Shown: piece after piece, positions 14,088-28,159 of the stretch | Layout of the letters: every line of letters starts with the position of its first letter | How positions within the stretch are numbered: the first letter of the stretch is position 1 | NCBI GenBank assembly: GCA_964545365.1 | Contig: CAZJFM010000001.1 | Location: forward strand, 30,948 to 94,947 | Reading direction: 5' to 3' | Length of the DNA stretch: 64,000 nt | Origin: an uncultured Candidatus Competibacteraceae bacterium | Lineage (GTDB): Bacteria; Bacteroidota; Bacteroidia; CAIKAF01 | Position numbers and translations under genes: made by a program | The notes under the pieces: model-generated | The model's database searches: none | The model's input: the letters and a program-made list of their open reading frames with translations, nothing else | Told to the model about the DNA's origin: nothing

Positions 14088-14977
14088 TTTTCATCTTTTG
14101 TGTAAGCATCTATATAAGAGTTCTGTGTTGTATTGATAACTACTGCCCCCTTCTTTTGAATGAGAATTTTTAAATCATGGTATCCTTTAAAGGTCAAATA
14201 AAGTTTTTTAAATTGCTCGTGAAGCAAAAAGTCAGTCCCATCAAGCTTTTCAACTGTGTTGTTTTTTGATTGCCAAAATGCATGTTTGTAGGATGTTCTT
14301 AATCTGTTATTGTCCAAAGAAATGTGTTTATGCCAGTCGTGATCAGTTCCAAATAGAAAGATTTGCTTAAACTTAAGCATAAGACTTAGGTAAATCGCAG
14401 CAACTAGTGTGTTATGAATACGTGGTGTGCCCAATCCCTTGTTCCAGAAATAATAGTTTATTATTTCTGACCCATCTACAGGTACTTGGTTAAAGAATTT
14501 TATTTCTAGATTCGGATTTTGCGAAATCTCTTTAATAAAGGTTTTTTTAGTGGCAAGCTGTGGAAGAAAAATATACATTTTCCAAGTCACCTTCATTAGG
14601 TTTTCGATAGTTTCCTTTTGGAGTTTTTGATATTTATCACTTACATTATCGGACCAGTATTCGTTGGCCTGTAACAAATGGATTTCAGGCTTCCATCTCC
14701 AAAACGCATCCGCTTTATAGAATTGATTAATTGTTAGTAACTTTACTTTATGGCGATTCTCGTTTATTTTATTTTCTTGGTGTTTAAGTGAGGGCCCATT
14801 TCCCAATATGAATAATGGGCTTTGTGAGTGTTCAAACTCTTTACTTAGCTTTTCATAATTGTGCTTTGCGTATTTTTGCTTTGCTAAATACAAAACTTTT
14901 AAAGCACTCAAAAAATCCTTGTGAACCATCTTTATCGCCATCAAAACAAAATTAGAAAGAATGTTTGGAAGGTTCAT
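14069..14977 (-). CDS. GT42-like sialyltransferase / nonulosonic-acid transferase (CstII-like)
   Basis: GNGPSLK followed by INQFY matches the Campylobacter CstII N-terminal motifs (AGNGPSLK...CNQFYFED). A later IFLFGTDHDW resembles the CstII catalytic-His region. The gene sits next to the CMP-sugar pathway. Confidence 0.5.
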   Translation of the reverse strand: MNLPNILSNFVLMAIKMVHKDFLSALKVLYLAKQKYAKHNYEKLSKEFEHSQSPLFILGNGPSLKHQENKINENRHKVKLLTINQFYKADAFWRWKPEIHLLQANEYWSDNVSDKYQKLQKETIENLMKVTWKMYIFLPQLATKKTFIKEISQNPNLEIKFFNQVPVDGSEIINYYFWNKGLGTPRIHNTLVAAIYLSLMLKFKQIFLFGTDHDWHKHISLDNNRLRTSYKHAFWQSKNNTVEKLDGTDFLLHEQFKKLYLTFKGYHDLKILIQKKGAVVINTTQNSYIDAYTKDEKWNLTI

Positions 14978-14983
14978 GTATTG

Positions 14984-17797
14984 ATGGACCTTCCCATAAT
15001 GTTTTTAATGATTTGCTTTTTTCAAGGTAGCATATTTACACCTTTATTTTCTCAATCAATAGACCTTTTAAATAGTAAACTCGCTGATGAAGAAGTCTAT
15101 GATTTACATGAACCTATTGCAGGCGAGTTGCTTTTAATGACTTCCAGAGGTTTAGTGCATGCGAAAAGGAGAAATTCTATTCAATTGGACGTAAGGCGCT
15201 ACTATGAAGGATTTCAGTTTTGGGAGGCATATGAAGATTCAACAGGGGTCTTGTGGTTAATTGGGAATAATCCCTATTTAATTCGATTTACACATAGTGG
15301 CGTTTCAAAAGTTTCCGTAGTGAATAGTGATGGTCAATTCCCATTTGGTTCATTTGGCCTAGGCGTTGTTTCAGGGCCAGTGGGAGAACTCTATCTACCC
15401 ACAGTTACTGGAAACCTTTCTTTGCTTGGTGATCGAAAGGACTTTTTTGAATCAATACGTTTTTTGAGTGAAAAGGCTCGGTTACTGCATCTAAATGATA
15501 CGATTGTTGTTGCTCCTTTGTATATATTCAATAAAAAGGATTCTAGTATTTTACAATTTGCAGATGCTCCTCCTCGGTCATCTAGAAACTATGTAATGTT
15601 TCAAAGTTTAGAGGGTATTTATGTTACCCATACTTTTCACCCTAATGAAGTGTGGTTTATTTCAAGGGAGACCGCTGATCCTCAATCAATTTCTTTAAGT
15701 GTGATTCCTGAATTAAAAGATGGTTTAATCTTTTTAGGGCATTTTTATAATCGACTTTGGTTTAGGAGTAGCAATTCATTGTTGTGGTTTGATATGCATG
15801 GAGAGTTTGGGGGCAAGTACCATCTCCCTTTTAGATTTCAACCAACGAAACTAGTTCCTTCTTTGGGGGGCGGGCTTTGGGTTCTAAGTCTAAATCATGG
15901 AATTCAACATATCAGTTTGACAGAATTAAGAGGTGATCAATATACAGGGGAAGGGGTACTTTCAACAGAAATTAATCTATTGAATGGCCTTGGTGCAGTT
16001 ACTCACGATAGGGAAAGTAAAGAAGTTGCAGTATTCAGGGGTAATCAGAGAACAAAAAAGTTTAATTATAAGCAAGAACTTCCTAAGCTTTGGGAATCTG
16101 AAGTTGTTTATTTATTTAACCAAGTTTTTATTGCATCAGAGGAGTGGTTGTTATTGGGGGATGGGGGGGCAACAACCTCTTATGAGTCATTGAGGGTGAA
16201 CCCAAGGTATATTGAGACAGAGGATAGCATTGGTGTTATGTTGACTTACAAGGGTACTTTTGGGTTGACACTTTGTCCTAATGGTACAATATCTTCGTAC
16301 AAGATATCCCCGAATACTTTTGGTAAGGCATCTTTGGGTGGAAATGGGATTTTTTTGTCTAATAATTCTGGTCTTTGGTTTTCGGAACAATCCGGAACCA
16401 AATTTCTTCCCGCAGAAAGATTAAGTGAAGAGCCCGTTAATTTTATGGGGTCTTTAAATGGAGTGACTTTTTTCCAAATGAAGGGGGGGGGGTGTTTTGT
16501 CTCAAATGGTAAAGAGCTTGTTAACCTCAATATTAGGTTGGGAGAGGTCGTCAAGTGTTTTGGTTATTCAAAACGCATTAGGGGATATTATGTGATTACA
16601 TCTAATACAATTTACCGCCTAAAGAGAATAAACAAAAATGTTTTTGTTAGGGAAGAATCTTCTTTCTTGGCCTCAATTTCAGGAATCGTAAAAGATGCAA
16701 CTATTGTAGACGATGAAGTCTTCCTTATTCGCCAAAATCATAGAGGAGAAAGTTTATGGTCATTTAGTTTGGAAGACCTATTTATTGCGGTTAAAGGTGA
16801 ATCTCATACTACTAACTTAGAAGGAGAATATATTATTCCTGAAGAGAATCCAGTATTAAATCTCTCTTTGGGAACAAACGCAATGCTTACAATGGATTCA
16901 GTTCATTTCATGTGGAGGTTGGACGGTGTTAGTAATGAGTGGAAAAGCTTTGATGGGTCTTCCATTGACTTTACCGGTTTCAAGCCTGGGAGTTTTCGTA
17001 TTTCAGTTGTCCAGCATTTTGCAAGGCATGAAATCGATAAGGACTCTTTTATAGTCCATATAACAAGACCATTTTACCAAACGCCAGCTTTCTGGGTAAT
17101 AAGTTTGTCATTATTTATTTTAATATTGACGCTTCTATTGGTTTGGAAGATTAAATCTTATGCCATTAAAGCACAGCTCGAGCTGCGTTTAATGCAGCTG
17201 GACCGTAAAGTTTTTGGCAGCAGGCTGAATGCTCATTTTGTTTTTAATACACTAAATAATTTAAAAGGGCTAGTTGAAAGTAGAAGAGCTGAGGAGGCTT
17301 CTTTTTACTTAACAAAGTTTTCAAAGGTTTTGCGCAGTTTTCTTGAGCAAACCTTTTCTGACGCAACTCCCGTTAGCAAGGAGGTTCATTTTTTATTGGA
17401 TTACCTCAGCTTAGAACATATGAGATTTCCTGGAGCATTTGAATTTACGATACGTTCTGGAGAGGATGTCTCGGAGCTTGAATTCCCAAGTGGGATTGTT
17501 CAGCCTTTTGTTGAGAATTGCTTCAAACATGCCATTTTAAAGAGGCCAAATGGTGGTGGCCATATTGATATTGTTTTTTATAGGTCAGACTCCAACGGGG
17601 TTTGTGTTGAAATTTCCGATAATGGCCCTGATAATAATAGCCAGCCAATAAAGGAGTCAGATTTTTCAGGTAGAGGGCTTCAAATCATTAAGGAGCACCT
17701 AGAGCTTTTGCGAAAGTTAAAAAGGTGGGATGTTCATTTTCAAACTGAATTTCATTGCACTGGATCGAAAATCACTATCTTAGCGAAAAAAATGTAA
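14984..17797 (+). CDS. Sensor histidine kinase, LytS/YehU type (PF06580 His_kinase + HATPase), with a roughly 700-aa extracytoplasmic sensor domain
   Basis: A signal-like N-terminus (MDLPIMFLMICFF) and a large sensor domain precede a single TM helix (AFWVISLSLFILILTLLLVW). LytS-family motifs NAHFVFNTLNNL and LEHMRF and the ATPase G-box (GRGLQII) follow. A G10 tract lies in-frame at 16491-16500. Confidence 0.8.
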   Translation: MDLPIMFLMICFFQGSIFTPLFSQSIDLLNSKLADEEVYDLHEPIAGELLLMTSRGLVHAKRRNSIQLDVRRYYEGFQFWEAYEDSTGVLWLIGNNPYLIRFTHSGVSKVSVVNSDGQFPFGSFGLGVVSGPVGELYLPTVTGNLSLLGDRKDFFESIRFLSEKARLLHLNDTIVVAPLYIFNKKDSSILQFADAPPRSSRNYVMFQSLEGIYVTHTFHPNEVWFISRETADPQSISLSVIPELKDGLIFLGHFYNRLWFRSSNSLLWFDMHGEFGGKYHLPFRFQPTKLVPSLGGGLWVLSLNHGIQHISLTELRGDQYTGEGVLSTEINLLNGLGAVTHDRESKEVAVFRGNQRTKKFNYKQELPKLWESEVVYLFNQVFIASEEWLLLGDGGATTSYESLRVNPRYIETEDSIGVMLTYKGTFGLTLCPNGTISSYKISPNTFGKASLGGNGIFLSNNSGLWFSEQSGTKFLPAERLSEEPVNFMGSLNGVTFFQMKGGGCFVSNGKELVNLNIRLGEVVKCFGYSKRIRGYYVITSNTIYRLKRINKNVFVREESSFLASISGIVKDATIVDDEVFLIRQNHRGESLWSFSLEDLFIAVKGESHTTNLEGEYIIPEENPVLNLSLGTNAMLTMDSVHFMWRLDGVSNEWKSFDGSSIDFTGFKPGSFRISVVQHFARHEIDKDSFIVHITRPFYQTPAFWVISLSLFILILTLLLVWKIKSYAIKAQLELRLMQLDRKVFGSRLNAHFVFNTLNNLKGLVESRRAEEASFYLTKFSKVLRSFLEQTFSDATPVSKEVHFLLDYLSLEHMRFPGAFEFTIRSGEDVSELEFPSGIVQPFVENCFKHAILKRPNGGGHIDIVFYRSDSNGVCVEISDNGPDNNSQPIKESDFSGRGLQIIKEHLELLRKLKRWDVHFQTEFHCTGSKITILAKKM
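16491..16500 (+). repeat. G10 homopolymeric tract inside the sensor-kinase coding sequence (a G5+G7 pair also lies at 16156-16169)
   Basis: Read directly: aag ggg ggg ggg tgt encodes K-G-G-G-C, in frame with the kinase ORF. Confidence 0.9.
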
Positions 17798-18531
17798 TGA
17801 AGATAATTGCTGTAGATGATGAGCAGCTGGCGCTTACTCAGCTGAGTAAAGTTTTTGAACTTGTTGACGTACAGGTAGTAGAACTTGATCTTGAATCCAA
17901 TCCCTTAAAAGCGATATCTAGGATAAAATCAAATAGCTATGATATAGCTTTATTGGATATCGAGATTGGTGCTGTATCAGGTTTTGACCTGATGGAAGAA
18001 ATTAAGGGAGATGTGAAAAAGATCGTTATAACCACAGCTTATGAGAATTATGCGATAAGGGCTTTACGTGAAAGAGTCTATGATTACCTTTTAAAACCTG
18101 TTGAGATAGATGATTTGAACGGGATGCTAAACAACTATTTAGAAGAAACCGCCCCAAATTCTTCTAAATCAAAAGGTAAACAAAGGATGATTTGTACGAT
18201 ACCTGTTCCTAGTGGAAAACTGTCTATTCCCTCTCTAAGCGGTTTTCGACTTATAGACTTAATGGATATCACCTATATTGAATCAGAGAACACTTATTCA
18301 AAACTTCATTTTAAAGATGGAGGCAGTCTTTGGGTTACAAAACACCTCAAGGAGTTTGATAGTGAGCTGTCAAACAATGGATTTTTTCGAATTCACCAAT
18401 CTTTCTTAATAAACCTCGCTTATGTTACAGGTTTCAACAGGGTTGAAGGTGCTAAAGTCGAGCTTTTAAATAGTATTCAATTGCCTGTAGCTCGCCGCAA
18501 GAAAGACGAGTTTCTTTCCTGCTTTAAATGA
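17797..18531 (+). CDS. LytTR-family two-component response regulator
   Basis: Receiver domain (MKIIAVDDEQLAL...LLDIEIG) plus a C-terminal LytTR DNA-binding domain. The start overlaps the kinase stop in a TAATG junction. Confidence 0.85.
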   Translation: MKIIAVDDEQLALTQLSKVFELVDVQVVELDLESNPLKAISRIKSNSYDIALLDIEIGAVSGFDLMEEIKGDVKKIVITTAYENYAIRALRERVYDYLLKPVEIDDLNGMLNNYLEETAPNSSKSKGKQRMICTIPVPSGKLSIPSLSGFRLIDLMDITYIESENTYSKLHFKDGGSLWVTKHLKEFDSELSNNGFFRIHQSFLINLAYVTGFNRVEGAKVELLNSIQLPVARRKKDEFLSCFK

Positions 18532-18592
18532 CCAAATTCTTCTTGGTTGAGGAGTTACTTCAATCTTTCAATTGCTTTTGATAATTTTGAAT

Positions 18593-21211
18593 ATGAAGTT
18601 TTATGCCTCAATTTCACTCGAAACTATCACATTTATAGTCTTTTTTTTCGTTTGTGAGACCTTGAGTGCCCAAGGGGGGTATGATCAATGGTTTTTCTCC
18701 CAGCAAACGAATTATGGACTTTCATTTTCTCCAAATGGTTCAGTTGCTGTAACATCAACCCATGCAACTCCTTTTGCTGAGGAGGGTAGTGTTGTTGTTG
18801 TTGATCCAATCATTGGAAACCTTTTATTTTACTCAAATGGAAATGTGGTTTGGGATGGAAATCATAACGTGATGCCAAATGGGGTAGGGCTACTTGCCAA
18901 CCCTTCAGTTTCAGAAAAGTGTGAAACCATCCAAATTCCAGGTGAATGCGGCCGCTTCATGATGTTTCATTCTACAGCTGTTGCTGAGAATAATGGTAAT
19001 GGTAGTTTATACTACTCTATTGTAGATATGAATTTGCCAGGTAATGGTAGTATCGCATCCCCACTTGGTGACCTCGACCCAACCCACAAAAATGTTCCTG
19101 TAATGTCAAACCCTGTGGAAGGTCTGGAGATTATAAAAGGCCCTTCGGACACAGTGGCATGGCTATTTACTGGTGTAGTTGGAAGTGGAAATTTAGAGCT
19201 CTTTAAAATTACAGTTGGAGGTGGAATAATAAATCAGTCTACAATTCCCTTAGGCATCAATTATGACGATATAAGATCTTTAGTATTCTCTTACGAGTCC
19301 TCCAAACTTGCAGTTGTTTCAAATCAAGAAAGTAAGCCAGTTATTATTATAGATTTCGACCTTTATTCCGGAGCGGTAGGGGCTGTGAATCAAGTGCCTG
19401 GGTCAATAACAGGGCCCAGTAGCTTCTATTGGACAGGTTTTTTTGATGTAGAGTGGTCGCCAAGTGGAAGATGGCTTTATTTAGCAAAATACAGGCATGG
19501 CAATCTTGCTGGCGGTATTTACCAGTACGACTTACTAAATCCGGCAGTTCCAATAACTCTACAATATTCTAACCCAGGAGGAGGTTCCAATAATTGGGTT
19601 ACTGATTTAAAAAGGACTGTCAATGGTGAAATTTTGTTTTTTGACTATCAAGGTTCGAATGGGGGGACACAAATGACTTTAGGTGAGATCCAGAATGCTG
19701 ATTCTTCTAGTCCTCAATACGTTGCCTCCAATTTATCATTTAGTCAAAATTTTAGTCCTGCCCACAAGTTTTCGAATTCTTTGAGTTCTTTCCCTGCTCC
19801 AGAATTGAATGATGATTCAGTTGTCTTGAATTGCTTAAGTTCAGTTGATACTTTATTCCCTTTTTTGAATGACGACATCGTTGCCTCAATAGCTGATTTT
19901 AATTTCACAGTTATTCAGAACTTTTCTTCCGTTATAGGCACATTTAGTGGGGATACCTTGTTTGTAGCTAGTAATAGTTCATATTCCTTAGACACCTTAA
20001 TTTATGAAGTTTGCACTGTGGGGTGTAGTCCATTTTGCGATACAGCAATTATTGTGGTTTCAGATCAAGGCCCAAGCATATCCCTTCTTCAGGACACAAC
20101 TATACTTTGCAAACCAGATTCAATTTTTATTGATACCAATGGTGTTTCTTGGGATTCATTGATTTGGTCAGATGGTTCAAATGGTGCTGCTATTTTCATC
20201 GATACAGCTGGCTCATTAGAAGTTAAAGGTTATTACGGAAATTGTATTGTGAGTGATACCATTTCTGTCTTTTTCGCACCAAGCTTGATGGAACCAGATA
20301 CAACTTCCTTAATATTTTGTGAGGGAGACTCTCTTCTTTTGTTTTTTGAGTTGGAATGCGACCTTTGTACGTATCAATGGAACACTGGGGTCGTTTCAGA
20401 TACAATTTATGCCAATACAGATGGCGTTTATCGCTTCAGTTTTTGGAATAGTTGTGATTCTTCCTATCAGGACTTCGAGGTATTTAAAAGGAATCAGCCA
20501 CCTTCAATAGCGACTGTTGATACAATTGTTTGCCCTGAGGATTCCGTCGTATTTAGTCCTTTAAGTTATTCTAGTGACTCTAGTTTAACTTGGGCAGTTA
20601 ACGATACCTATATCCCGAGCGATACCAATTTGGTACTTGGTGACTTTTTTAATGAAGTTCGGGCATCCAACGAATGTGGAATGAATACCTTCTTCATAAA
20701 CGTTAGCTATTTGATGGAGCCATTGCCTTCTGATAGCGTAATTATTTCATGTTCAGACTCTTTGCTATTTAAATTCCCTGAAGCTCTTGTTGTTTTTGAC
20801 AGTACTGGAAACCATATTAATTCAGAGATTTGGATTAAGGAAAACGAGTCAATTACGGTCTCTTACCTTTATTGTGATAGTGTGCGCTTTTTTAATTTAT
20901 TTAAAAAGTCTATAACCGAAGATATTTCAAATGCAATCCTTTCAAATGTATTCACACCCAATGGTGACGGAATTAATGATTTTTTTCATCCTGTTCCACT
21001 ACAGTTCCTTAGTACCTCAAGCTTGATCGGGGAATTCTTTATTTTCAATAGGTGGGGTTCTGAACTTTTCCATTCAACCAGCCTTAAGACACCATGGGAG
21101 CCCAACTTGGACGTTCCAGAAGGGACCTACTATTGTGTAGTTATTCTTGGTGACTCTTGTTCCCCCGGTACCCAAACTAGGCTTGTTAAGTCTTTTCAAC
21201 TGTTCCGTTGA
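18593..21211 (+). CDS. Large secreted cell-surface protein with a T9SS type-B C-terminal sorting domain (gliding-motility-associated CTD); adhesin-like, paralog 1
   Basis: Signal peptide, an N-terminal roughly 250-aa domain shared with the next gene, and Cys-containing repeat modules. The C-terminus has the FTPNGDGINDFF...IFNRWGSELF motif typical of the TIGR04131/CHU_C sorting domain. Confidence 0.7.
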   Translation: MKFYASISLETITFIVFFFVCETLSAQGGYDQWFFSQQTNYGLSFSPNGSVAVTSTHATPFAEEGSVVVVDPIIGNLLFYSNGNVVWDGNHNVMPNGVGLLANPSVSEKCETIQIPGECGRFMMFHSTAVAENNGNGSLYYSIVDMNLPGNGSIASPLGDLDPTHKNVPVMSNPVEGLEIIKGPSDTVAWLFTGVVGSGNLELFKITVGGGIINQSTIPLGINYDDIRSLVFSYESSKLAVVSNQESKPVIIIDFDLYSGAVGAVNQVPGSITGPSSFYWTGFFDVEWSPSGRWLYLAKYRHGNLAGGIYQYDLLNPAVPITLQYSNPGGGSNNWVTDLKRTVNGEILFFDYQGSNGGTQMTLGEIQNADSSSPQYVASNLSFSQNFSPAHKFSNSLSSFPAPELNDDSVVLNCLSSVDTLFPFLNDDIVASIADFNFTVIQNFSSVIGTFSGDTLFVASNSSYSLDTLIYEVCTVGCSPFCDTAIIVVSDQGPSISLLQDTTILCKPDSIFIDTNGVSWDSLIWSDGSNGAAIFIDTAGSLEVKGYYGNCIVSDTISVFFAPSLMEPDTTSLIFCEGDSLLLFFELECDLCTYQWNTGVVSDTIYANTDGVYRFSFWNSCDSSYQDFEVFKRNQPPSIATVDTIVCPEDSVVFSPLSYSSDSSLTWAVNDTYIPSDTNLVLGDFFNEVRASNECGMNTFFINVSYLMEPLPSDSVIISCSDSLLFKFPEALVVFDSTGNHINSEIWIKENESITVSYLYCDSVRFFNLFKKSITEDISNAILSNVFTPNGDGINDFFHPVPLQFLSTSSLIGEFFIFNRWGSELFHSTSLKTPWEPNLDVPEGTYYCVVILGDSCSPGTQTRLVKSFQLFR

Positions 21212-21228
21212 TTGTAATTAAATTGTCT

Positions 21229-21236
21229 TAAATTTG
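21229..21236 (+). promoter_or_regulatory. Bacteroidetes sigma-A -7 box (TAnnTTTG) upstream of adhesin paralog 2
   Basis: TAAATTTG lies 18 bp upstream of the ATG at 21254. Confidence 0.3.
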
Positions 21237-21253
21237 ATTACCAATTCTAAATC

Positions 21254-24058
21254 ATGAAAGCTTTGAGATTTTTTGTTCTTTTAATACCATACTTATTGGG
21301 CATTTCTGCACTTGCTCAGAGTGAACGGGTAAACTGGTATTTGGGTGATGCTACAAGTTTGGGGGTTCAATTTCCTTTGCCCAATTATGTTCCTAATGTT
21401 ACCACAGGTAATGCCGTTCCGATGGGGCGTGAAGGTCGATTTGTTGGCACTCACCCCATCAGTGGAAACCTTTTGTTCTATGGGAATGGCACTGTACTTT
21501 ACGATGCGTCGGGGATGACTATGACAAATGGTGCGGGGTTATCAGGCAATGTTGGTAATTTTCAGTCGGCTTGGTCTGTTCCAAATCCAGCTAATTGTGA
21601 CCAATATTACTATATCTACAATTCCGCGGTTAGAGAAAATGCTCCTGGAGGAGTCTTTTATTCAATTATAGACATGTCAGCACAAGGGAATGGCACTCCA
21701 GGCAATCCACTTGGCGAAGTTGTAATGGCTCAAAAGGATGTTCCTATTTATCAGCCCTCTTGGGAAGGTTTTACAGTTATTCAAAGTGTTGGTAATCATG
21801 CATACTGGCTTTTAATAGGAAATGGAAACGGCTCTTCGATTGAGGTATTCAATATTTCTGCTGGAGGTGTTAACTTTTCCAGTTCATTTCCTTTGCCAGC
21901 AGCTTTAGGCGACATAAGAACAATAAGAGCCAATCGATTAGGAACACAAGTGTTCTTGGTTAGTGGTGTTGAGTCTGACCCATCCTATATTATTGACTTT
22001 AATCCTGCTATCGGGGCTCTTTCTAACCCAATCGCTATCCCAGCATTTGGTGCAAGTAACAATTTTTTTGACGGAAATTTGGATGCGGAGTTTTCATTTG
22101 ATGGTACTAAAGTGTATGTTTCAAAAATGCGCAACCCAGGCGCAGGGTCGGGTGGGCAGATATATCAAGTTGACTTATCAAATTTAGGAAACCCACCCGT
22201 AATAGTGTATGATAATATGGGTGGCAATAATGATTTTGTTAGCGGTTTGAGGAGAGGGCCTAATAAGCAAATTTACTTTGTTCACCGGGAGCCGACAAAT
22301 GGGTATCGTTATTTGGGTGTTATCCAAAACCCCAATGCTGCCGGCCTAGCCTGTAACCCACTTTCCTCTGGTATTGATTTGGGCCAAGGGTTCAATGAAG
22401 AATATTTTGGATTACCTAATTTTTTTCTGGAGAACTTCAAACCTGTTGCAATAACTGATTCAATTATAGTCCCGTGTAATCAAGGTTTTGCGGCTCAGGT
22501 TTCACCACTAATCAATGATTTGGATTCCAACTTTACTGCTTTTTCATTATCCCTTATTGATATTCCTCAAGGGGTTCAAGCTTCAATTAATGGTACGCAG
22601 GTTGATGTTGTTTTTCCAAATGTTTTCTTAAATCAGGACACTATTTTTTATGAGGTTTGTGACGATCATTGTTTTCAAAAGTGTGACACAGGCTTTATTG
22701 TGTTAGTTCCAATTTCCAATGTTCCTTCGCCTTTTTGGCCTAATGATACAAGTCTTTGTGCTTCCAGCCCATTACCGCTATTTACCCCATTATCTAATCA
22801 AGGACTTTTACATACTTGGAGCACTGGAGCGACAACTGATACCATATTCGTTTCTAATACTGGTGACTATTCAGTAGAAGTTAACTTGGGCAATTGCGTA
22901 ATTCGGGATACTATTTTTGTAGATATTATATCAATTCCCAGCCCCAACCTAGGACTCAACCGACTCATTTGCTCCGGTATTCCTCCAATCCTTGACGCTA
23001 CCTGCTCCGGGTGCTCGTACCTTTGGTCTACTGGTTCAACTGCCGGGTCTATTGCTCCAACCCAACCCGGTAATTATTGGGTGCAAGTCACTTCCCAGTG
23101 CGGGGTCGGTTCCGATACCGTGGCCGTTACTTCCTCGGTTCAACCTTTTGTAGAACTTGGTCCTGATCGGCTCGTTTGCGATACATCAGACTTATTTATT
23201 GATTACTCTTGCCTTGGTTGCTACTACTTGGTGAATGACCAAGCAGCAGACTCCTCGCTTACTATTGAAGCCTCAGGAACCTATTGGGTGGAAGTGGGTA
23301 ACGATTGTGGTACGGTTTACGATACGGTAACCCTTGTTATGGGAGCCAATGCCGAATTTAATATCCTCGACGATTCCTTGGTTTGTCCCGGCGATACCGC
23401 TTACCTTACCTCTTCGGGTGCCGTTGCTCCATACACTTGGTCTGATGGTTCCTCGGGAGATACGCTTATGATTACCGAACGCGGTTGGTACACGCTCACC
23501 TGGAGCGGAGTATGCGGTGAAACTACTGACTCGGTTTATATAAAACAGCTCCTGCCTTCGGAAATAACGCTAGGTGATGACTTTACCGTGTGCGATAGTG
23601 GCTTCGCTCCTATTTATATTGAAAACTTGGGAGATGACGCCGAATACCTCTGGTGGAATGGTACAACAGGAGATACCGCTTACGTATTTAGAGAGGACAA
23701 CTACGTGGTGCGCGTGGATTATTGCGAAGATTTTTACACCGACACCATTTTTGTGCGGTATACCGACGAAACAGACGGCCTCTTTATACCCAATACCTTT
23801 ACTCCTAATGGCGACGGACTCAATGAAGTCTTTTATATTCGCGGGCTTGACCCGGCTTGGCTAAGTTTTGAATTTCTTGTGTTTGACCGTTGGGGGCAAA
23901 TTGTGTATCAAACCGATGATCCTCGGAAAGGATGGGAAGGATTAGATCCTTCCGGTGCCAATAAGCTCGACGACGGTTCCTATGTGTATAAGGTCATTTA
24001 TACCTCCCCTTGCCGATCGGAATGGGAATATACCGGCGTAGTAAACATGATTCGTTGA
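21254..24058 (+). CDS. Large secreted cell-surface protein with a T9SS type-B C-terminal sorting domain; adhesin-like, paralog 2
   Basis: Signal peptide (MKALRFFVLLIPYLLGISALAQS), an N-terminal domain paralogous to the previous gene, and four or five roughly 78-aa Cys-containing repeats. The C-terminus is FTPNGDGLNEVFYIRGL...VFDRWGQIVY. Confidence 0.7.
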   Translation: MKALRFFVLLIPYLLGISALAQSERVNWYLGDATSLGVQFPLPNYVPNVTTGNAVPMGREGRFVGTHPISGNLLFYGNGTVLYDASGMTMTNGAGLSGNVGNFQSAWSVPNPANCDQYYYIYNSAVRENAPGGVFYSIIDMSAQGNGTPGNPLGEVVMAQKDVPIYQPSWEGFTVIQSVGNHAYWLLIGNGNGSSIEVFNISAGGVNFSSSFPLPAALGDIRTIRANRLGTQVFLVSGVESDPSYIIDFNPAIGALSNPIAIPAFGASNNFFDGNLDAEFSFDGTKVYVSKMRNPGAGSGGQIYQVDLSNLGNPPVIVYDNMGGNNDFVSGLRRGPNKQIYFVHREPTNGYRYLGVIQNPNAAGLACNPLSSGIDLGQGFNEEYFGLPNFFLENFKPVAITDSIIVPCNQGFAAQVSPLINDLDSNFTAFSLSLIDIPQGVQASINGTQVDVVFPNVFLNQDTIFYEVCDDHCFQKCDTGFIVLVPISNVPSPFWPNDTSLCASSPLPLFTPLSNQGLLHTWSTGATTDTIFVSNTGDYSVEVNLGNCVIRDTIFVDIISIPSPNLGLNRLICSGIPPILDATCSGCSYLWSTGSTAGSIAPTQPGNYWVQVTSQCGVGSDTVAVTSSVQPFVELGPDRLVCDTSDLFIDYSCLGCYYLVNDQAADSSLTIEASGTYWVEVGNDCGTVYDTVTLVMGANAEFNILDDSLVCPGDTAYLTSSGAVAPYTWSDGSSGDTLMITERGWYTLTWSGVCGETTDSVYIKQLLPSEITLGDDFTVCDSGFAPIYIENLGDDAEYLWWNGTTGDTAYVFREDNYVVRVDYCEDFYTDTIFVRYTDETDGLFIPNTFTPNGDGLNEVFYIRGLDPAWLSFEFLVFDRWGQIVYQTDDPRKGWEGLDPSGANKLDDGSYVYKVIYTSPCRSEWEYTGVVNMIR

Positions 24059-24103
24059 GAAACCTGAAGGCTTTGTATCTTTGTAGGAAATTCAACATAT
24101 TCT

Positions 24104-24490
24104 ATGGAATTATCCGGCACCATTAAGCAAGTTCTCCCCCTACAAACTGGCGAAGGCCGCAATGGCCCGTGGCGCAAACAAGAGTTTATTCTTCAAACCG
24201 AAGGCCCATACCCTAAAGATGTGTGTATAGCCGTTTGGGGAAATAAAATCGACGGCGCCCCCATTCAAGAAAACCAAAAAGTACAGGTGTCTTTTGACGT
24301 TGAAAGCCGGGAATATAACGGTCGCTGGTATACCGATGTAAAAGCTTGGAAAGTTCAAGCGGCCGATGCTGCTGCTGCTCCGCCGCCGGCAGCAAATGCG
24401 CCTTCCGGAGCCGCAGCTCCTCCCTTTCCAGCAGCCCCTCCTCCTCCTCCTATGCCCGGTGGTGGTGGAGAAGACGATTTACCCTTCTAA
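24104..24490 (+). CDS. DUF3127-family small protein with a Pro/Ala/Gly-rich tail ending in an SSB-like acidic tip
   Basis: The N-terminal roughly 85 aa match the DUF3127 pattern (MELSGTIKQVLPLQTGEGRNGPWRKQEFIL...). The tail is AAAPPPAANAPSGAAAPPFPAAPPPPPMPGGGG followed by EDDLPF. Confidence 0.6.
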   Translation: MELSGTIKQVLPLQTGEGRNGPWRKQEFILQTEGPYPKDVCIAVWGNKIDGAPIQENQKVQVSFDVESREYNGRWYTDVKAWKVQAADAAAAPPPAANAPSGAAAPPFPAAPPPPPMPGGGGEDDLPF

Positions 24491-24559
24491 GGTCAGCTTT
24501 CAAAACTTCCTTTGATTTTCTCTTAAAAGGAAATCGCTTGAATAGGGCCCTTTATATTT

Positions 24560-24740
24560 AGCGCGTGGTCTTAATACGGAGCTTAAGCGGGAGGGATGGA
24601 GCCGATACCCCACAAGCCCAAAGCAATGACGCGCAAGGGCTTGCCGGGCGGCGCAACGCAAGCCACGGCAAGTCCTATGGGCGACTTGCTTTGGGGTGAG
24701 GAGTAAAGGTGAGAGCCCGTCCCTATGGGCCCGCCCAAAT
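24560..24740. other. GC-rich structured intergenic element between convergent genes
   Basis: A 10-bp inverted repeat CCCAAAGCAA (24617-24626) pairs with TTGCTTTGGG (24686-24695) around a GC-rich loop. GCCC-GTCCCTAT-GGGC forms a further hairpin. No ORF. Confidence 0.25.
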
Positions 24741-24965
24741 TCACTCCCCGTATTCTATGATTTCGTTGCCGTCCTTGTCTTTTCTGCTTCCCTTAGCTTT
24801 TAGTTCTATGGTGCCTTTTGGCTTTCGGGGCTCCGAATGGCCTCGGTTTGTGCTGTTGGGGTTGCTGCTTCCTTGGCGGGCTTTAAATAGACGGATTAGA
24901 AATTTTAGGGCATAGTACATGCCTATCACTAATAAAACGGTACGTGCTATGGCCCAGATTTTCAT
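24741..24965 (-). CDS. Small membrane-anchored protein (DUF4834-like?)
   Basis: 74 aa with an N-terminal TM helix (IARTVLLVIGMYYALKFLI) and a charged C-terminal tail, immediately downstream of the carB stop. The family assignment is uncertain. Confidence 0.3.
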   Translation of the reverse strand: MKIWAIARTVLLVIGMYYALKFLIRLFKARQGSSNPNSTNRGHSEPRKPKGTIELKAKGSRKDKDGNEIIEYGE

Positions 24966-24980
24966 GAGGCAAAGATAGGC

Positions 24981-27791
24981 TTAGCGGCTGAGGTAGAGGT
25001 TTCGTTCGGTGTAGATTTTGGTGAAATACCTGTCGCGCAAGCTGCTGATAAATCGGATTGCTTCTCCCGTGCTTTTCATTTCAGGTCCCAACTCTTTGTT
25101 GACATTGGGGAATTTGTTGAAGCTAAACACAGGAATTTTAATGGCGTAACCTTCCAACTTAGGTTTGTATTCAAAATCGTTAAGCGTATGTGTGCCCAAC
25201 ATAATTTTGGCCGCCCAATTTACATAGGCTTGACCGTAAGCCTTGCAAATGAAGGGGACAGTACGTGAGGCTCTAGGGTTCGCTTCAATGACGAACACTT
25301 CGTCGTCTTTTATGGCAAACTGTATGTTGATTAAGCCTTTAACCCCCATTTCAAGGGCTATTTTTTTGGTGTACTCTTCCATTTTCTCAATCACCAAAGC
25401 TCCAAGGTTGTAGGGCGGCAGAACGGCATAGGAATCGCCTGAGTGAATTCCGGCAGGTTCAATATGTTGCATGATTCCAAGAATTTGCACCTCATTTCCA
25501 TCGCAAATGGCATCGGCTTCGGCTTCAATAGTGCGCTCTAGAAAGTGGTCCAGCAGGACGTTGTTGCCTGGAATGTCTCTTAAAAGTTCAATTAAATGCG
25601 ATTCAAGTTCTTCGTTGTTGAGCACGATTTTCATCTTTTGTCCACCCAGAACATAGGAGGGGCGCACCAAAAGGGGAAAACCAAGTTCTCCACTAAGGCT
25701 TAGGGCTTCGTCAATGGTTTTAACCGTACCAAATTTGGGGTAGGGGATGTTAAGCTCATGCAATAGGCGTGAAAATCGACCTCTGTCTTCGGCTAAGTCC
25801 AAGGAGGCATATCCGGTGCCCAAAATGGGGATGCCGTATCGGTCGAGCTTTTCGGCTAGTTTAAGGGCTGTTTGTCCGCCGAGTTGCACCATTACACCAA
25901 CGGGCTTTTCGTGCCGAATGATGTCGTATAAATGTTCCCAAAAAACGGGTTCAAAGTAGAGTTTGTCTGCGGTATCCGGGTCGGTAGACACCGTTTCCGG
26001 GTTGCAGTTGACCATGATGGCCTCGAAGCCGGCCTCTTTGGCGGCCAACACCCCGTGAACGCAGCAATAATCAAATTCTATGCCCTGTCCAATTCGGTTT
26101 GGTCCGGCACCTAATATCAATACTTTGGCTTTGTCGGTGGTGGTAGACTCGTTCTCCTCGTCAAAGGTGGAATAAAAGTAGGGAGTATACGCTTCAAACT
26201 CTGCCGCGCAGGTGTCCACTTGCTTCCACACCCTATGCACCCCCTCTTTTTCTCTCTTAGAAAATACTTCGCTTTCTAAGCAATTTGTTAAGTGTGCAAT
26301 TTGTCGATCGCCATATCCCTTTTGTTTGGCTCGGCGTAGTAGATCCAGGGGCAAGGCTTCTATGCTGAATTGGGTGAGCTCTTGTTCAAAATCTACCAAA
26401 TCTCGGATTTGATTGAGGAACCAAGGGTGAATCTGAGTATGTCGTTGTACCGTAGACAAGGGCAAGCCCAGCTTAAATGCATCGTAGATGTGGAACAGCC
26501 GGTTCCAAGAAGGGTGGCTTAAGCTTTGTAGGATTTGGTCGCGGTTGCTTAATTCCTTTCCATCGGCACCCAAACCATTTCTACCAATCTCCAGGCTTTG
26601 ACAAGCTTTTTGCAAGGCTTCCTGAAAAGATCGGCCAATGCCCATTACTTCGCCTACCGATTTCATTTGAAGACCTAAAGAAGCATCGGCACCCTTGAAT
26701 TTGTCAAAATTCCAACGGGGAATTTTGACTATGACATAGTCCAAGGTGGGTTCAAATAAGGCCGAAGTTTTGGTTATAGGGTTTTCCAGTTCGTCCAAGG
26801 TGTAGCCAATGGCCAGTTTGGTAGCAATGCGCGCAATGGGATAACCGGTTGCTTTGGAGGCCAAAGCGGAGGAGCGGCTAACCCTTGGGTTGATTTCTAT
26901 GGCTACCATTTCTCCGGTTTCGGGATGAATGGCAAACTGTACGTTACAACCTCCGGCGAAATTGCCGATAGCGCGCATCATTCGAATGGCCAGATCGCGC
27001 ATTTCTTGGTAAAGGGTGTCGGGAAGGGTCATTGCAGGCGCTACGGTAATGGAGTCGCCGGTATGAATGCCCATGGGGTCCATATTTTCAATGGAACAAA
27101 TAATGACCACATTGTCGTTGGCATCCCGAAGCAATTCCAATTCAAACTCACTCCAACCAAAGATGGACTTTTCAATAAGTACTTCATGAATGGGGCTGGC
27201 ATGGAGGCCGTTGTTCAATAAATCGTCGAAGGATTCACGGTCATGCACAAAGGCACCTCCCGTTCCGCCTAAGGTATAAGAGGGTCGAATAACCAATGGA
27301 AAGCCAATGCGTTGCGCAATATCTTTGCCCTCCAAAAAGGAGTTCGCCGTTTCCGAAGGGGCCACGGGAACCTCTTCTTGCTGCATGAGTTGACGAAACA
27401 ACTCTCGATTTTCTGTTCGATCGATTGCTTCCAAGTCTACGCCAATCAACCGCACGCCAAACTGTTCCCAAATGCCTGCTTCGGCGCATTCCTTACACAG
27501 GTTTAGGGCGGTTTGTCCTCCCATGGTGGGCAGTACTGCATCTATATGCTCCGACTCCAAAATATCTACAATACTTTCTAGCTCAAGTGGTTTTAGGAAT
27601 ATTTGGTCTGCAACCACCGGGTCGGTCATAATGGTCGCCGGATTGGAATTGATGAGCAGCACCCTAATGCCTTCTTCTTTGAGCGCGCGGGCGGCTTGCG
27701 TTCCCGAATAGTCGAATTCACAGGCTTGTCCTATAACAATAGGGCCGCTCCCAATGATAAGTACGGACTTTATGGATTGATCTTTTGGCAT
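24981..27791 (-). CDS. carB: Carbamoyl-phosphate synthase large subunit
   Basis: Two ATP-grasp repeats and an MGS-like domain, with the start at MPKDQSIKSVLIIGSGPIVIGQACEFDYSGTQA. The upstream in-frame extension in the ORF track is probably not translated. Confidence 0.95.
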   Translation of the reverse strand: MPKDQSIKSVLIIGSGPIVIGQACEFDYSGTQAARALKEEGIRVLLINSNPATIMTDPVVADQIFLKPLELESIVDILESEHIDAVLPTMGGQTALNLCKECAEAGIWEQFGVRLIGVDLEAIDRTENRELFRQLMQQEEVPVAPSETANSFLEGKDIAQRIGFPLVIRPSYTLGGTGGAFVHDRESFDDLLNNGLHASPIHEVLIEKSIFGWSEFELELLRDANDNVVIICSIENMDPMGIHTGDSITVAPAMTLPDTLYQEMRDLAIRMMRAIGNFAGGCNVQFAIHPETGEMVAIEINPRVSRSSALASKATGYPIARIATKLAIGYTLDELENPITKTSALFEPTLDYVIVKIPRWNFDKFKGADASLGLQMKSVGEVMGIGRSFQEALQKACQSLEIGRNGLGADGKELSNRDQILQSLSHPSWNRLFHIYDAFKLGLPLSTVQRHTQIHPWFLNQIRDLVDFEQELTQFSIEALPLDLLRRAKQKGYGDRQIAHLTNCLESEVFSKREKEGVHRVWKQVDTCAAEFEAYTPYFYSTFDEENESTTTDKAKVLILGAGPNRIGQGIEFDYCCVHGVLAAKEAGFEAIMVNCNPETVSTDPDTADKLYFEPVFWEHLYDIIRHEKPVGVMVQLGGQTALKLAEKLDRYGIPILGTGYASLDLAEDRGRFSRLLHELNIPYPKFGTVKTIDEALSLSGELGFPLLVRPSYVLGGQKMKIVLNNEELESHLIELLRDIPGNNVLLDHFLERTIEAEADAICDGNEVQILGIMQHIEPAGIHSGDSYAVLPPYNLGALVIEKMEEYTKKIALEMGVKGLINIQFAIKDDEVFVIEANPRASRTVPFICKAYGQAYVNWAAKIMLGTHTLNDFEYKPKLEGYAIKIPVFSFNKFPNVNKELGPEMKSTGEAIRFISSLRDRYFTKIYTERNLYLSR

Positions 27792-28159
27792 GTTGCTTCG
27801 GTGTTGGGCAAAGGTAAGCAGCCTGATGCGGATTCGCCATTTTGAACCCCAAATCTTACGCGAGAATTGGGGGTGAGCTTTGGAAGCCCTGCTTCTCTCC
27901 GGCGTATGGCACAATAACCAATGCAGCCCTTCAAAAAATGCAGCTTCTCTTCACAAGCATTATACCCCCTGCCGATGAGCGTATGAAAAAGGAGAATTGG
28001 GGCAAGACTCTTTTGTTCCCAAACAATTCTCGTTAGGTACTGCCTTAAGATGGCTGCTCCCTCCTGTCTTTTATGGAGAGGCGGTGCCGAATTAAGCCAA
28101 AAGCTTGAAAGTAGGAGGTTATAAAGGCGCAAGCGGACTGGCCTAAGCCTATTTCTTCA

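Follow-up and report, generated by a model that had tools for sequence, protein, structure and literature searches.

We describe here a small protein encoded on the + strand of a 64,000-nucleotide stretch of bacterial DNA (contig CAZJFM010000001.1; "the window" hereafter denotes this whole stretch, as analysed), which belongs to the family DUF3127 and which is probably a minimal accessory SSB (single-strand DNA-binding protein) of a separate family, one that would bind single-stranded DNA (ssDNA) and recruit the partners of SSB. Namely, its 85-residue oligonucleotide/oligosaccharide-binding (OB) barrel would bind ssDNA through conserved surface aromatics and basic residues, with an SSB-like dimer or tetramer as the probable assembly, while a disordered Pro/Ala-rich linker would present a C-terminal (E/D)DDLPF peptide. 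This tip may dock exonuclease I, RecQ, RecJ, RecO, PriA, the Pol III chi subunit and the phage annealases RecT and Erf onto coated ssDNA, using the same pockets as the canonical SSB tip. In Bacteroidota phages, the DUF3127 protein would be the phage's replication and recombination SSB, and we infer that the window copy acts as a vertically inherited, stand-alone accessory SSB, with a physiological role of its own and with tasks in some way shared out between it and the canonical tetrameric SSB beside which it would work. The parts of the gene on which the argument draws are the following.

24104..24490, + strand: complete coding sequence of the DUF3127, mini-SSB-like protein, 128 amino acids (aa) plus stop, from the list of open reading frames (ORFs) and the sequence, the PF11325 match and the homologues.
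24104..24361, + strand: predicted OB-fold core, residues 1-86 (beta1 2-10, beta-hairpin 14-18, beta2 21-32, beta3 39-45, short helix 46-49, beta4 59-71, beta5 74-86).
24362..24469, + strand: Ala/Pro/Gly linker, residues 87-122, predicted to be intrinsically disordered from the model confidence and the composition of the family.
24470..24487, + strand: acidic tip EDDLPF of the type found at the SSB C-terminus (SSB-Ct), residues 123-128, conserved in the homologue sets, with an xDDLPF ending as in Bacteroidales SSBs.
24076..24083, + strand: TAtcTTTG, a putative -7 promoter element of the Bacteroidota type lying 21 nt ahead of the ATG, read from the sequence.

A first-pass annotation, made from the letters of the window, had described a 128-aa DUF3127 protein, and the ORF reads exactly as quoted there, with an ATG start, the C-terminal stretch PMPGGGGEDDLPF and the final residues GGGGEDDLPF. 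The family assignment is borne out by Pfam, where PF11325 (DUF3127) covers residues 2-84 (E=7.5e-32, 109.8 bits against a cut-off of 27 bits, profile positions 1-84 of 85). In addition, the profile phrog_4932, whose label "single strand DNA binding protein" is an inferred remote-homology annotation, matches residues 1-128 over its entire length (positions 1-117 of 117, E=2.6e-19). A scan of the window protein against NCBIfam gave noise matches only, and searches of PDB sequences with the single protein and with a 44-sequence profile gave no solved relative, returning low-complexity noise and aq_2013 at an E-value of 0.38.

The acidic end, which the same annotation had read as a genuine SSB tip, is kept across the family. 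Among the closest homologues (the best 120 of 2795 obtained with the full-length query, tail included), 118 of 120 end in PF and 114 of 120 match the pattern [DE][DE].?[ILMVF]PF$. Because this query contained the tail, the search was redone with the core only, i.e. with residues 1-85 against 1.84 billion cluster representatives, which gave 3562 matches at E<=1e-3; of the best 150 representatives found in this way, 118 end in PF, and many of the exceptions are apparent frameshifts or fragments, or near-misses such as NNLPY, DDDLPW and NDLGF. The PF ending also occurs in 61 of 64 viral ORFs from the best loci and in 18 of 18 two-domain variants described below, and the (D/E)D(L/I/M)PF end persists even in phage proteins with only 28-33% core identity, which terminate in KDDLPF, ESDLPF and GDDLPF. 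Across 231 sequences, the five final columns hold D (78%), D (81%), L (93%), P (100%) and F (100%), whereas the three columns preceding DDLPF are only 19-33% conserved. The linker, in turn, has a median length of 31 residues in the family, with extremes of 8 and 67, and consists of P (18%), A (15%), S (10%) and G (10%) in particular, with no positional conservation, and its composition is comparable to that of Bacteroidales SSB linkers (P 21%, A 11%). In the window protein it reads AADAAAAPPPAANAPSGAAAPPFPAAPPPPPMPGGGG over residues 87-122, with low model confidence, in agreement with the low-complexity Ala/Pro/Gly linker noted at first pass. Such a combination, in which core and tip stay constant and the linker is free to vary, constitutes the signature of a bacterial SSB, and these alignments indicate that the tip is under selection, strongly so and in the last five residues only, rather than being a chance ending.

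One could argue that the C-terminal LPF is mainly a proteolysis tag, and that the OB core binds a ligand other than ssDNA, such as RNA. Namely, in S. mutans UA159 a C-terminal LPF on SsbA is enough for degradation by ClpXP (PMC5143411). However, that tag is strain-specific, being unrecognised in E. coli or other streptococci (PMC5143411), and the conservation seen here includes the acidic DD before LPF (78-81%), which is the signature of partner docking. With the phage context of the family being that of DNA replication and recombination, we regard a degron as barely conceivable.

The tip is, moreover, the one that the hosts use in their own SSBs. All 120 of the 120 Bacteroidales canonical SSBs that we collected end in xDDLPF, and the characterised tetrameric SSBs of Flavobacterium psychrophilum (FpsSSB) and Psychroflexus torquis (PtoSSB) end in DLPF (PMC3991886). 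On the strength of these shared endings the DUF3127 tip can be equated with the host's own SSB-Ct, and it is from the xDDLPF ending common to host SSBs that we infer partner binding by the tip. The two types of protein also coexist: in a Bacteroidales metagenome-assembled genome (MAG; JAVBKX010000033.1, locus L041, 10001-14036), three genes adjoin one another on a single strand within 4 kb, one for a DUF3127 protein (ending in TDDLPF), one for a 986-aa PD-(D/E)XK nuclease-family protein whose C-terminus bears a Cys cluster (PF12705), and one for canonical SSB (ending in NDDLPF; PF00436, E=9.6e-34). The DUF3127 and SSB genes lie 3 kb apart and, both being present, one genome contains two SSB-type proteins. 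This SSB was encountered incidentally, and canonical SSB was found neither in the 64,000 nt of the window nor, L041 apart, at the other loci examined. As a separate observation, the trio in L041 might represent a local cluster for DNA repair; none of the other 79 genome loci showed this arrangement.

Having the same xDDLPF tip as the host SSB, and coexisting with it, would also suit a decoy or regulator of the SSB interactome, i.e. a protein that does not coat ssDNA and whose tip titrates, pre-loads or competes for SSB partners, tuning repair and replication restart. An OB core much smaller than that of SSB, with minimal L23 and L45 loops, would agree with such a role, and a precedent exists in a phage SSB-like protein with a host-type tip, for which interference with ExoI was proposed (bioRxiv 10.64898/2026.04.29.721553). 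That said, the core itself, the two-domain variants and the phage copies all speak for a protein that binds ssDNA, and we consider a pure decoy unlikely.

In particular, an AlphaFold2 model built on a 44-sequence alignment has a confident core, with a predicted local distance difference test (pLDDT) score of about 85-94 over residues 1-80 and the order beta1, beta-hairpin, beta2, beta3, short helix, beta4, beta5, followed by a tail predicted to be disordered (pLDDT <50 over about residues 90-123, namely 90-107 and 116-123). The closest structural matches of this model in the PDB are SSB and PriB. Other nucleic-acid OB folds (the MCM N-terminal domain, RPA, the editosome and aminoacyl-tRNA synthetases) rank close behind, so that the fold class is secure, but the ranking alone is no proof of SSB function. 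Against viral models, Foldseek places phage DUF3127 proteins at the top, followed by canonical phage SSBs. The OB-fold-like core proposed at first pass is thus recovered as a confidently predicted OB fold with SSB-type topology. Across 261 cores, an aromatic residue occupies each of the positions W23, Y36, W45, Y/F71, W75, Y76 and W82 in 95% of sequences or more, and a basic residue each of K25, K38, R69, R74, K80 and K83 in 94% or more, a density that would be typical of a nucleic-acid-binding OB surface. For a decoy, seven near-invariant aromatics and six basic residues within an 85-aa OB domain are hard to explain without a nucleic-acid ligand.

A further line of evidence comes from proteins in which the domain is duplicated. 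Eighteen Bacteroidales proteins (P0004, P0391-P0407; locus L084, 10001-10675) have two DUF3127 domains, one linker and a single LPF tip, and further tandem two-domain proteins are P0121, P0124, P0128, P0133, P0175 and P0223. The tandem proteins are 190-253 aa long, and their second domain carries a diverged beta4-beta5 turn, ESREGSNGGWF. A model built from 18 sequences only is confident across both domains and the short connector (pLDDT 84-94, predicted template modelling score 0.70) and resembles the Thermus two-OB SSB. As the predicted packing of the two domains mimics an SSB dimer, it suggests that the single-domain DUF3127 protein may dimerise as SSB does. Such mimicry of the two-OB arrangement of SSB is also not what one would expect of a decoy. 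The tandem gene at L084 is flanked by envelope and housekeeping genes.

The phage copies point in the same direction. With tblastn, the domain was found in 19 records of phages in GenBank, whose hosts are Bacteroides, Phocaeicola, Cellulophaga, Flavobacterium and Maribacter and of which several are annotated "single strand DNA binding protein" via PHROGs, and IMG/VR holds at least 173 viral contigs with a DUF3127 relative. Of the best 80 viral loci, 32 have a DnaC-like helicase loader as a neighbour, 29 a Holliday-junction resolvase, 18 a RecT-like annealase and 18 a DNA methyltransferase. Cellulophaga phage phi10:1 carries the gene between that for a YqaJ exonuclease and those for NinG, a methylase and a primase-helicase, and in Flavobacterium phage 11b it follows Erf at a distance of three genes. 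When the 80 viral loci, the entire genome of 11b and 50 of the 53.7 kb of phi10:1 were searched with a hidden Markov model of the SSB core, no canonical SSB was detected. Given these replication and recombination neighbours and no canonical SSB among them, the phage copies would appear to fill the SSB slot of their modules, which is again difficult to reconcile with a decoy. As an aside, in LoVEphage-like Bacteroides phages the DUF3127 gene (220-621 in phage BI-TP1, L001) is a few kb from a gene annotated as reverse transcriptase (5441 onward in BI-TP1), which bears the structure-alignment note "Retron-type reverse...".

The DnaC-like loaders that adjoin phage copies bear on yet another possibility, namely that DUF3127 is a PriB-like primosome or restart adaptor, an SSB-derived OB dimer bridging PriA, ssDNA and helicase loading in the FCB group (Bacteroidota, Chlorobiota, Gemmatimonadota), whose members have, to our knowledge, no recognisable PriB, DnaT or PriC. 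The size of the domain would fit, 85 aa being nearer to PriB than to SSB. PriB is a proteobacterial protein encoded in an rpsF-priB-rpsR operon. It has neither a disordered linker nor an SSB-Ct tip, whereas DUF3127 has both, as its most strongly conserved extra feature, and is encoded by a stand-alone gene in FCB bacteria. Neither an rpsF-priB-rpsR-like arrangement nor linkage to priA or the primosome was seen around it: the neighbours in the window are CHU_C genes and carB, and none is conserved in 80 genomes. The SSB-Ct tip is itself a known ligand of PriA (PMC5531588), but the pairing of phage copies with RecT, Erf and YqaJ points to a more general SSB role, and a restart adaptor of the PriB type strikes us as quite improbable.

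If DUF3127 is an accessory SSB of the host as well, one would expect the chromosomal copies to behave as host genes. The family is present in at least 592 species genomes, from Chitinophagales, Cytophagales, Bacteroidales, Flavobacteriales, Sphingobacteriales and Saprospirales and from Gemmatimonadota and Chlorobiota MAGs. Upstream of the window gene (14921-24058) lie a two-component pair, made up of a 958-aa sensor histidine kinase and a LytTR response regulator, and then, immediately before the gene, two very large proteins (879 and 934 aa) with the CHU_C signal of type IX secretion, with carB, rsmG and a sigma factor facing it on the opposite strand. An independent public contig (L083) encodes the same protein with the same upstream gene order, and P0001, a homologue of 95% identity, is encoded on an NCBI contig of 1.57 Mb. 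In the window and at L084, the flanks of the host copy are housekeeping genes without mobile elements, and the PADLOC defence models match neither the single-domain nor the tandem form. A prophage or mobile-element origin of the window copy was considered and rejected, nothing phage-like or defence-related being found around the gene. The host copy is, in this sense, core-like. Synteny is seen at the family level only and, when 1134 neighbouring ORFs from 80 genomes were clustered, no neighbour was common to more than 13 loci; with no conserved neighbour, guilt-by-association fails for the chromosomal copy. Separately, typical Bacteroidota-like DUF3127 proteins were seen in two MAGs labelled Proteobacteria, L060 (Thiorhodovibrio) and P0501 (Hyphomicrobiales), where binning contamination or phage-mediated transfer is likely.

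The prevalence of the family in Bacteroidota phages and on IMG/VR contigs would permit one to see the chromosomal copy as a domesticated or decaying phage gene without host function, kept by drift or within a cryptic element. Against this, chromosomal copies are 50-60% identical across orders, as compared with 28-50% for phage copies, and at least 592 species carry the family. What is more, synteny extends to the family level, phage or mobile genes are missing from the flanks in the window and at L084, and the window ORF is intact, with all conserved family residues present. Such a relic is, in our view, very improbable.

It should still be noted that a number of observations weigh against assigning an SSB function to DUF3127. 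First, the window protein has no PF00436 match in Pfam at E<=1. Comparison of the DUF3127 profile with the canonical SSB of L041 by hhalign gave a probability of 88.5%, but over an alignment that spans beta4-beta5 plus the tail and thus depends on the shared tail. With the tails off, the comparison of 261 DUF3127 cores with 120 Bacteroidales SSB cores was not significant (E=0.079, probability 0.7%), a weak negative, because the SSB alignment is shallow (Neff, the effective number of sequences, 1.5). Since Pfam gave no SSB match and the core-only hhalign signal collapses to this level, DUF3127 is, as judged by sequence comparison, a distinct family, SSB-like in architecture and not demonstrably a member of PF00436. 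The likeness to the L45/beta-5 region of SSB that had been noted at first pass stands in part: hhalign returns the same register, aligning CIAVWG with TIVLWR and ESREYNG with HTRSYDD, but the likeness loses significance without the tail. In this short register, and in favour of a DNA-binding core, W45 aligns with F60 (VVLF60G) and Y71 with W88 (RTRKW88) of E. coli SSB, two of its four base-stacking residues (PMC3991886). Second, the DUF3127 core is about 20-25 residues shorter than that of SSB, with very short L23 and L45 loops, and wrapping and cooperative binding modes may consequently differ or be absent. Third, the alignment behind the tandem model is shallow, and AlphaFold may carry SSB packing over from its training data. 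Finally, coexistence with canonical SSB was seen directly in one genome only, the 80 genomes offer no conserved operon partner that would anchor a pathway, and we found no biochemical or genetic study of any DUF3127 protein in the literature searched.

How does DUF3127 compare with known systems? Like canonical SSB (PF00436; E. coli SSB, FpsSSB), it has one N-terminal OB fold, a disordered Pro/Gly/Ala-rich linker and an acidic D-D-(L/I)-P-F tip; unlike it, its core has about 85 aa as opposed to 105-110 aa, L23 and L45 are very short, and for the residues of tetramerisation, His55 for example, there is no demonstrated equivalent. The SSB paralogues SsbB and SSBb are bona fide PF00436 members, and B. 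subtilis SsbB is not known to carry the acidic tip, which DUF3127 keeps strictly. In further contrast to these paralogues (SsbB of B. subtilis and S. pneumoniae; Mycobacterium SSBb, PDB 5gqo), no competence or stress-operon context is seen at DUF3127 loci. The two-OB SSB of Deinococcus-Thermus (Thermus thermophilus, PDB 2cwa) differs in that the DUF3127 duplication is independent and was seen in Bacteroidales, not in Deinococcus-Thermus, and in that the window protein is single-domain. The phage SSB-like proteins of phrog_4932 share the full-length match, the xDLPF end and the location in replication and recombination modules. Lastly, Bas52_0087 of the DRT10 study is likewise a non-canonical OB protein, ending in FDDDIPF, but is a larger, two-OB protein of an E. 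coli phage and was not shown to be DUF3127.

The first-pass annotation had called the protein an uncharacterised ssDNA-metabolism factor of Bacteroidetes. "Uncharacterised" holds as regards experiments and as regards Pfam and NCBI names; indeed, in NCBI and UniProt the name remains "DUF3127 domain-containing protein". It does not hold for the phage members, already named SSB by PHROGs and in several GenBank phage records, and the range of the family is wider than Bacteroidota. In the literature searched, DUF3127 is mentioned by one paper only, as a CDD match in a Pantoea phage SSB. As PHROGs already calls the phage members SSB, the idea of an SSB function is implicit in the databases. What appears to be undescribed, as far as we could find, is the phylum-wide chromosomal spread, the strict host-matching tip, the occurrence side by side with SSB and the Thermus-like tandem forms.

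Essentially every transaction of ssDNA in bacteria is organised by SSB and its C-terminal tip, and among the Bacteroidota are dominant bacteria of the gut and the environment, in which the machinery of replication, repair and recombination is little studied. Since an SSB-like protein carries the docking peptide of the main SSB, Bacteroidota and their phages likely have a second hub for replication and repair enzymes, and a phylum-wide protein with this peptide would need a place in models of Bacteroidota DNA metabolism. Going further, one may speculate that DUF3127 is a dedicated second ssDNA hub of the FCB group, e.g. the missing adaptor of the PriB/DnaT kind, linking helicase loading to PriA or to recombination mediators, that it might form mixed assemblies with canonical SSB, and that phage versions hijack the same docking sites. 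We hold this extended proposal to be unlikely; if true, it would amount to a lineage-specific solution for replication restart and recombination, made from a minimal OB fold and the universal SSB-Ct peptide. The accessory SSB that we favour is also relevant to recombineering in Bacteroidota, because single-strand annealing proteins (SSAPs) depend for their function on a matching SSB tail (ETfinder, PMC13490951) and phage copies adjoin RecT and Erf. It would, in addition, provide an SSB scaffold of 85 aa, as compared with the 140 aa of FpsSSB, which was described as the shortest one-OB SSB (PMC3991886), and a re-annotation of this DUF becomes possible.

Some minor features surround the gene. 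The sequence TAtcTTTG at 24076-24083 fits TAnnTTTG, which we take to be the -7 consensus of Bacteroides promoters, and is thus a candidate box; a scan for sigma-70 promoters and terminators gave nothing convincing on the + strand for the DUF3127 gene. At 24586-24735, between the DUF3127 stop and the ORF 24741-24965 (- strand) beside carB, the intergenic DNA forms a near-perfect hairpin of about 150 nt, with a GC content of 58-60% in surroundings of about 45%. Its minimum free energy is -89.7 kcal/mol for the + strand (z -4.66) and -82 kcal/mol for the - strand (z -4.02). An Rfam scan of 23500-25500, hairpin included, gave no match at E<=1, and a 23-mer taken from the hairpin occurs nowhere else in the window. 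The hairpin may represent a mobile or REP-like palindrome, a terminator that acts in both directions or a new small RNA. The 74-aa ORF at 24741-24965 (- strand), without a Pfam match, has a hydrophobic N-terminus, MKIWAIARTVLLVIGMYYALKFLIRLF, and a basic tail, and lies directly downstream of carB on the same strand. Finally, the ORF listed for carB itself (24981-27914, - strand) opens with a TTG, whereas the likely true start, MPKDQSIK, comes about 41 codons further on; the first Pfam domain begins at residue 47 of the ORF as listed.
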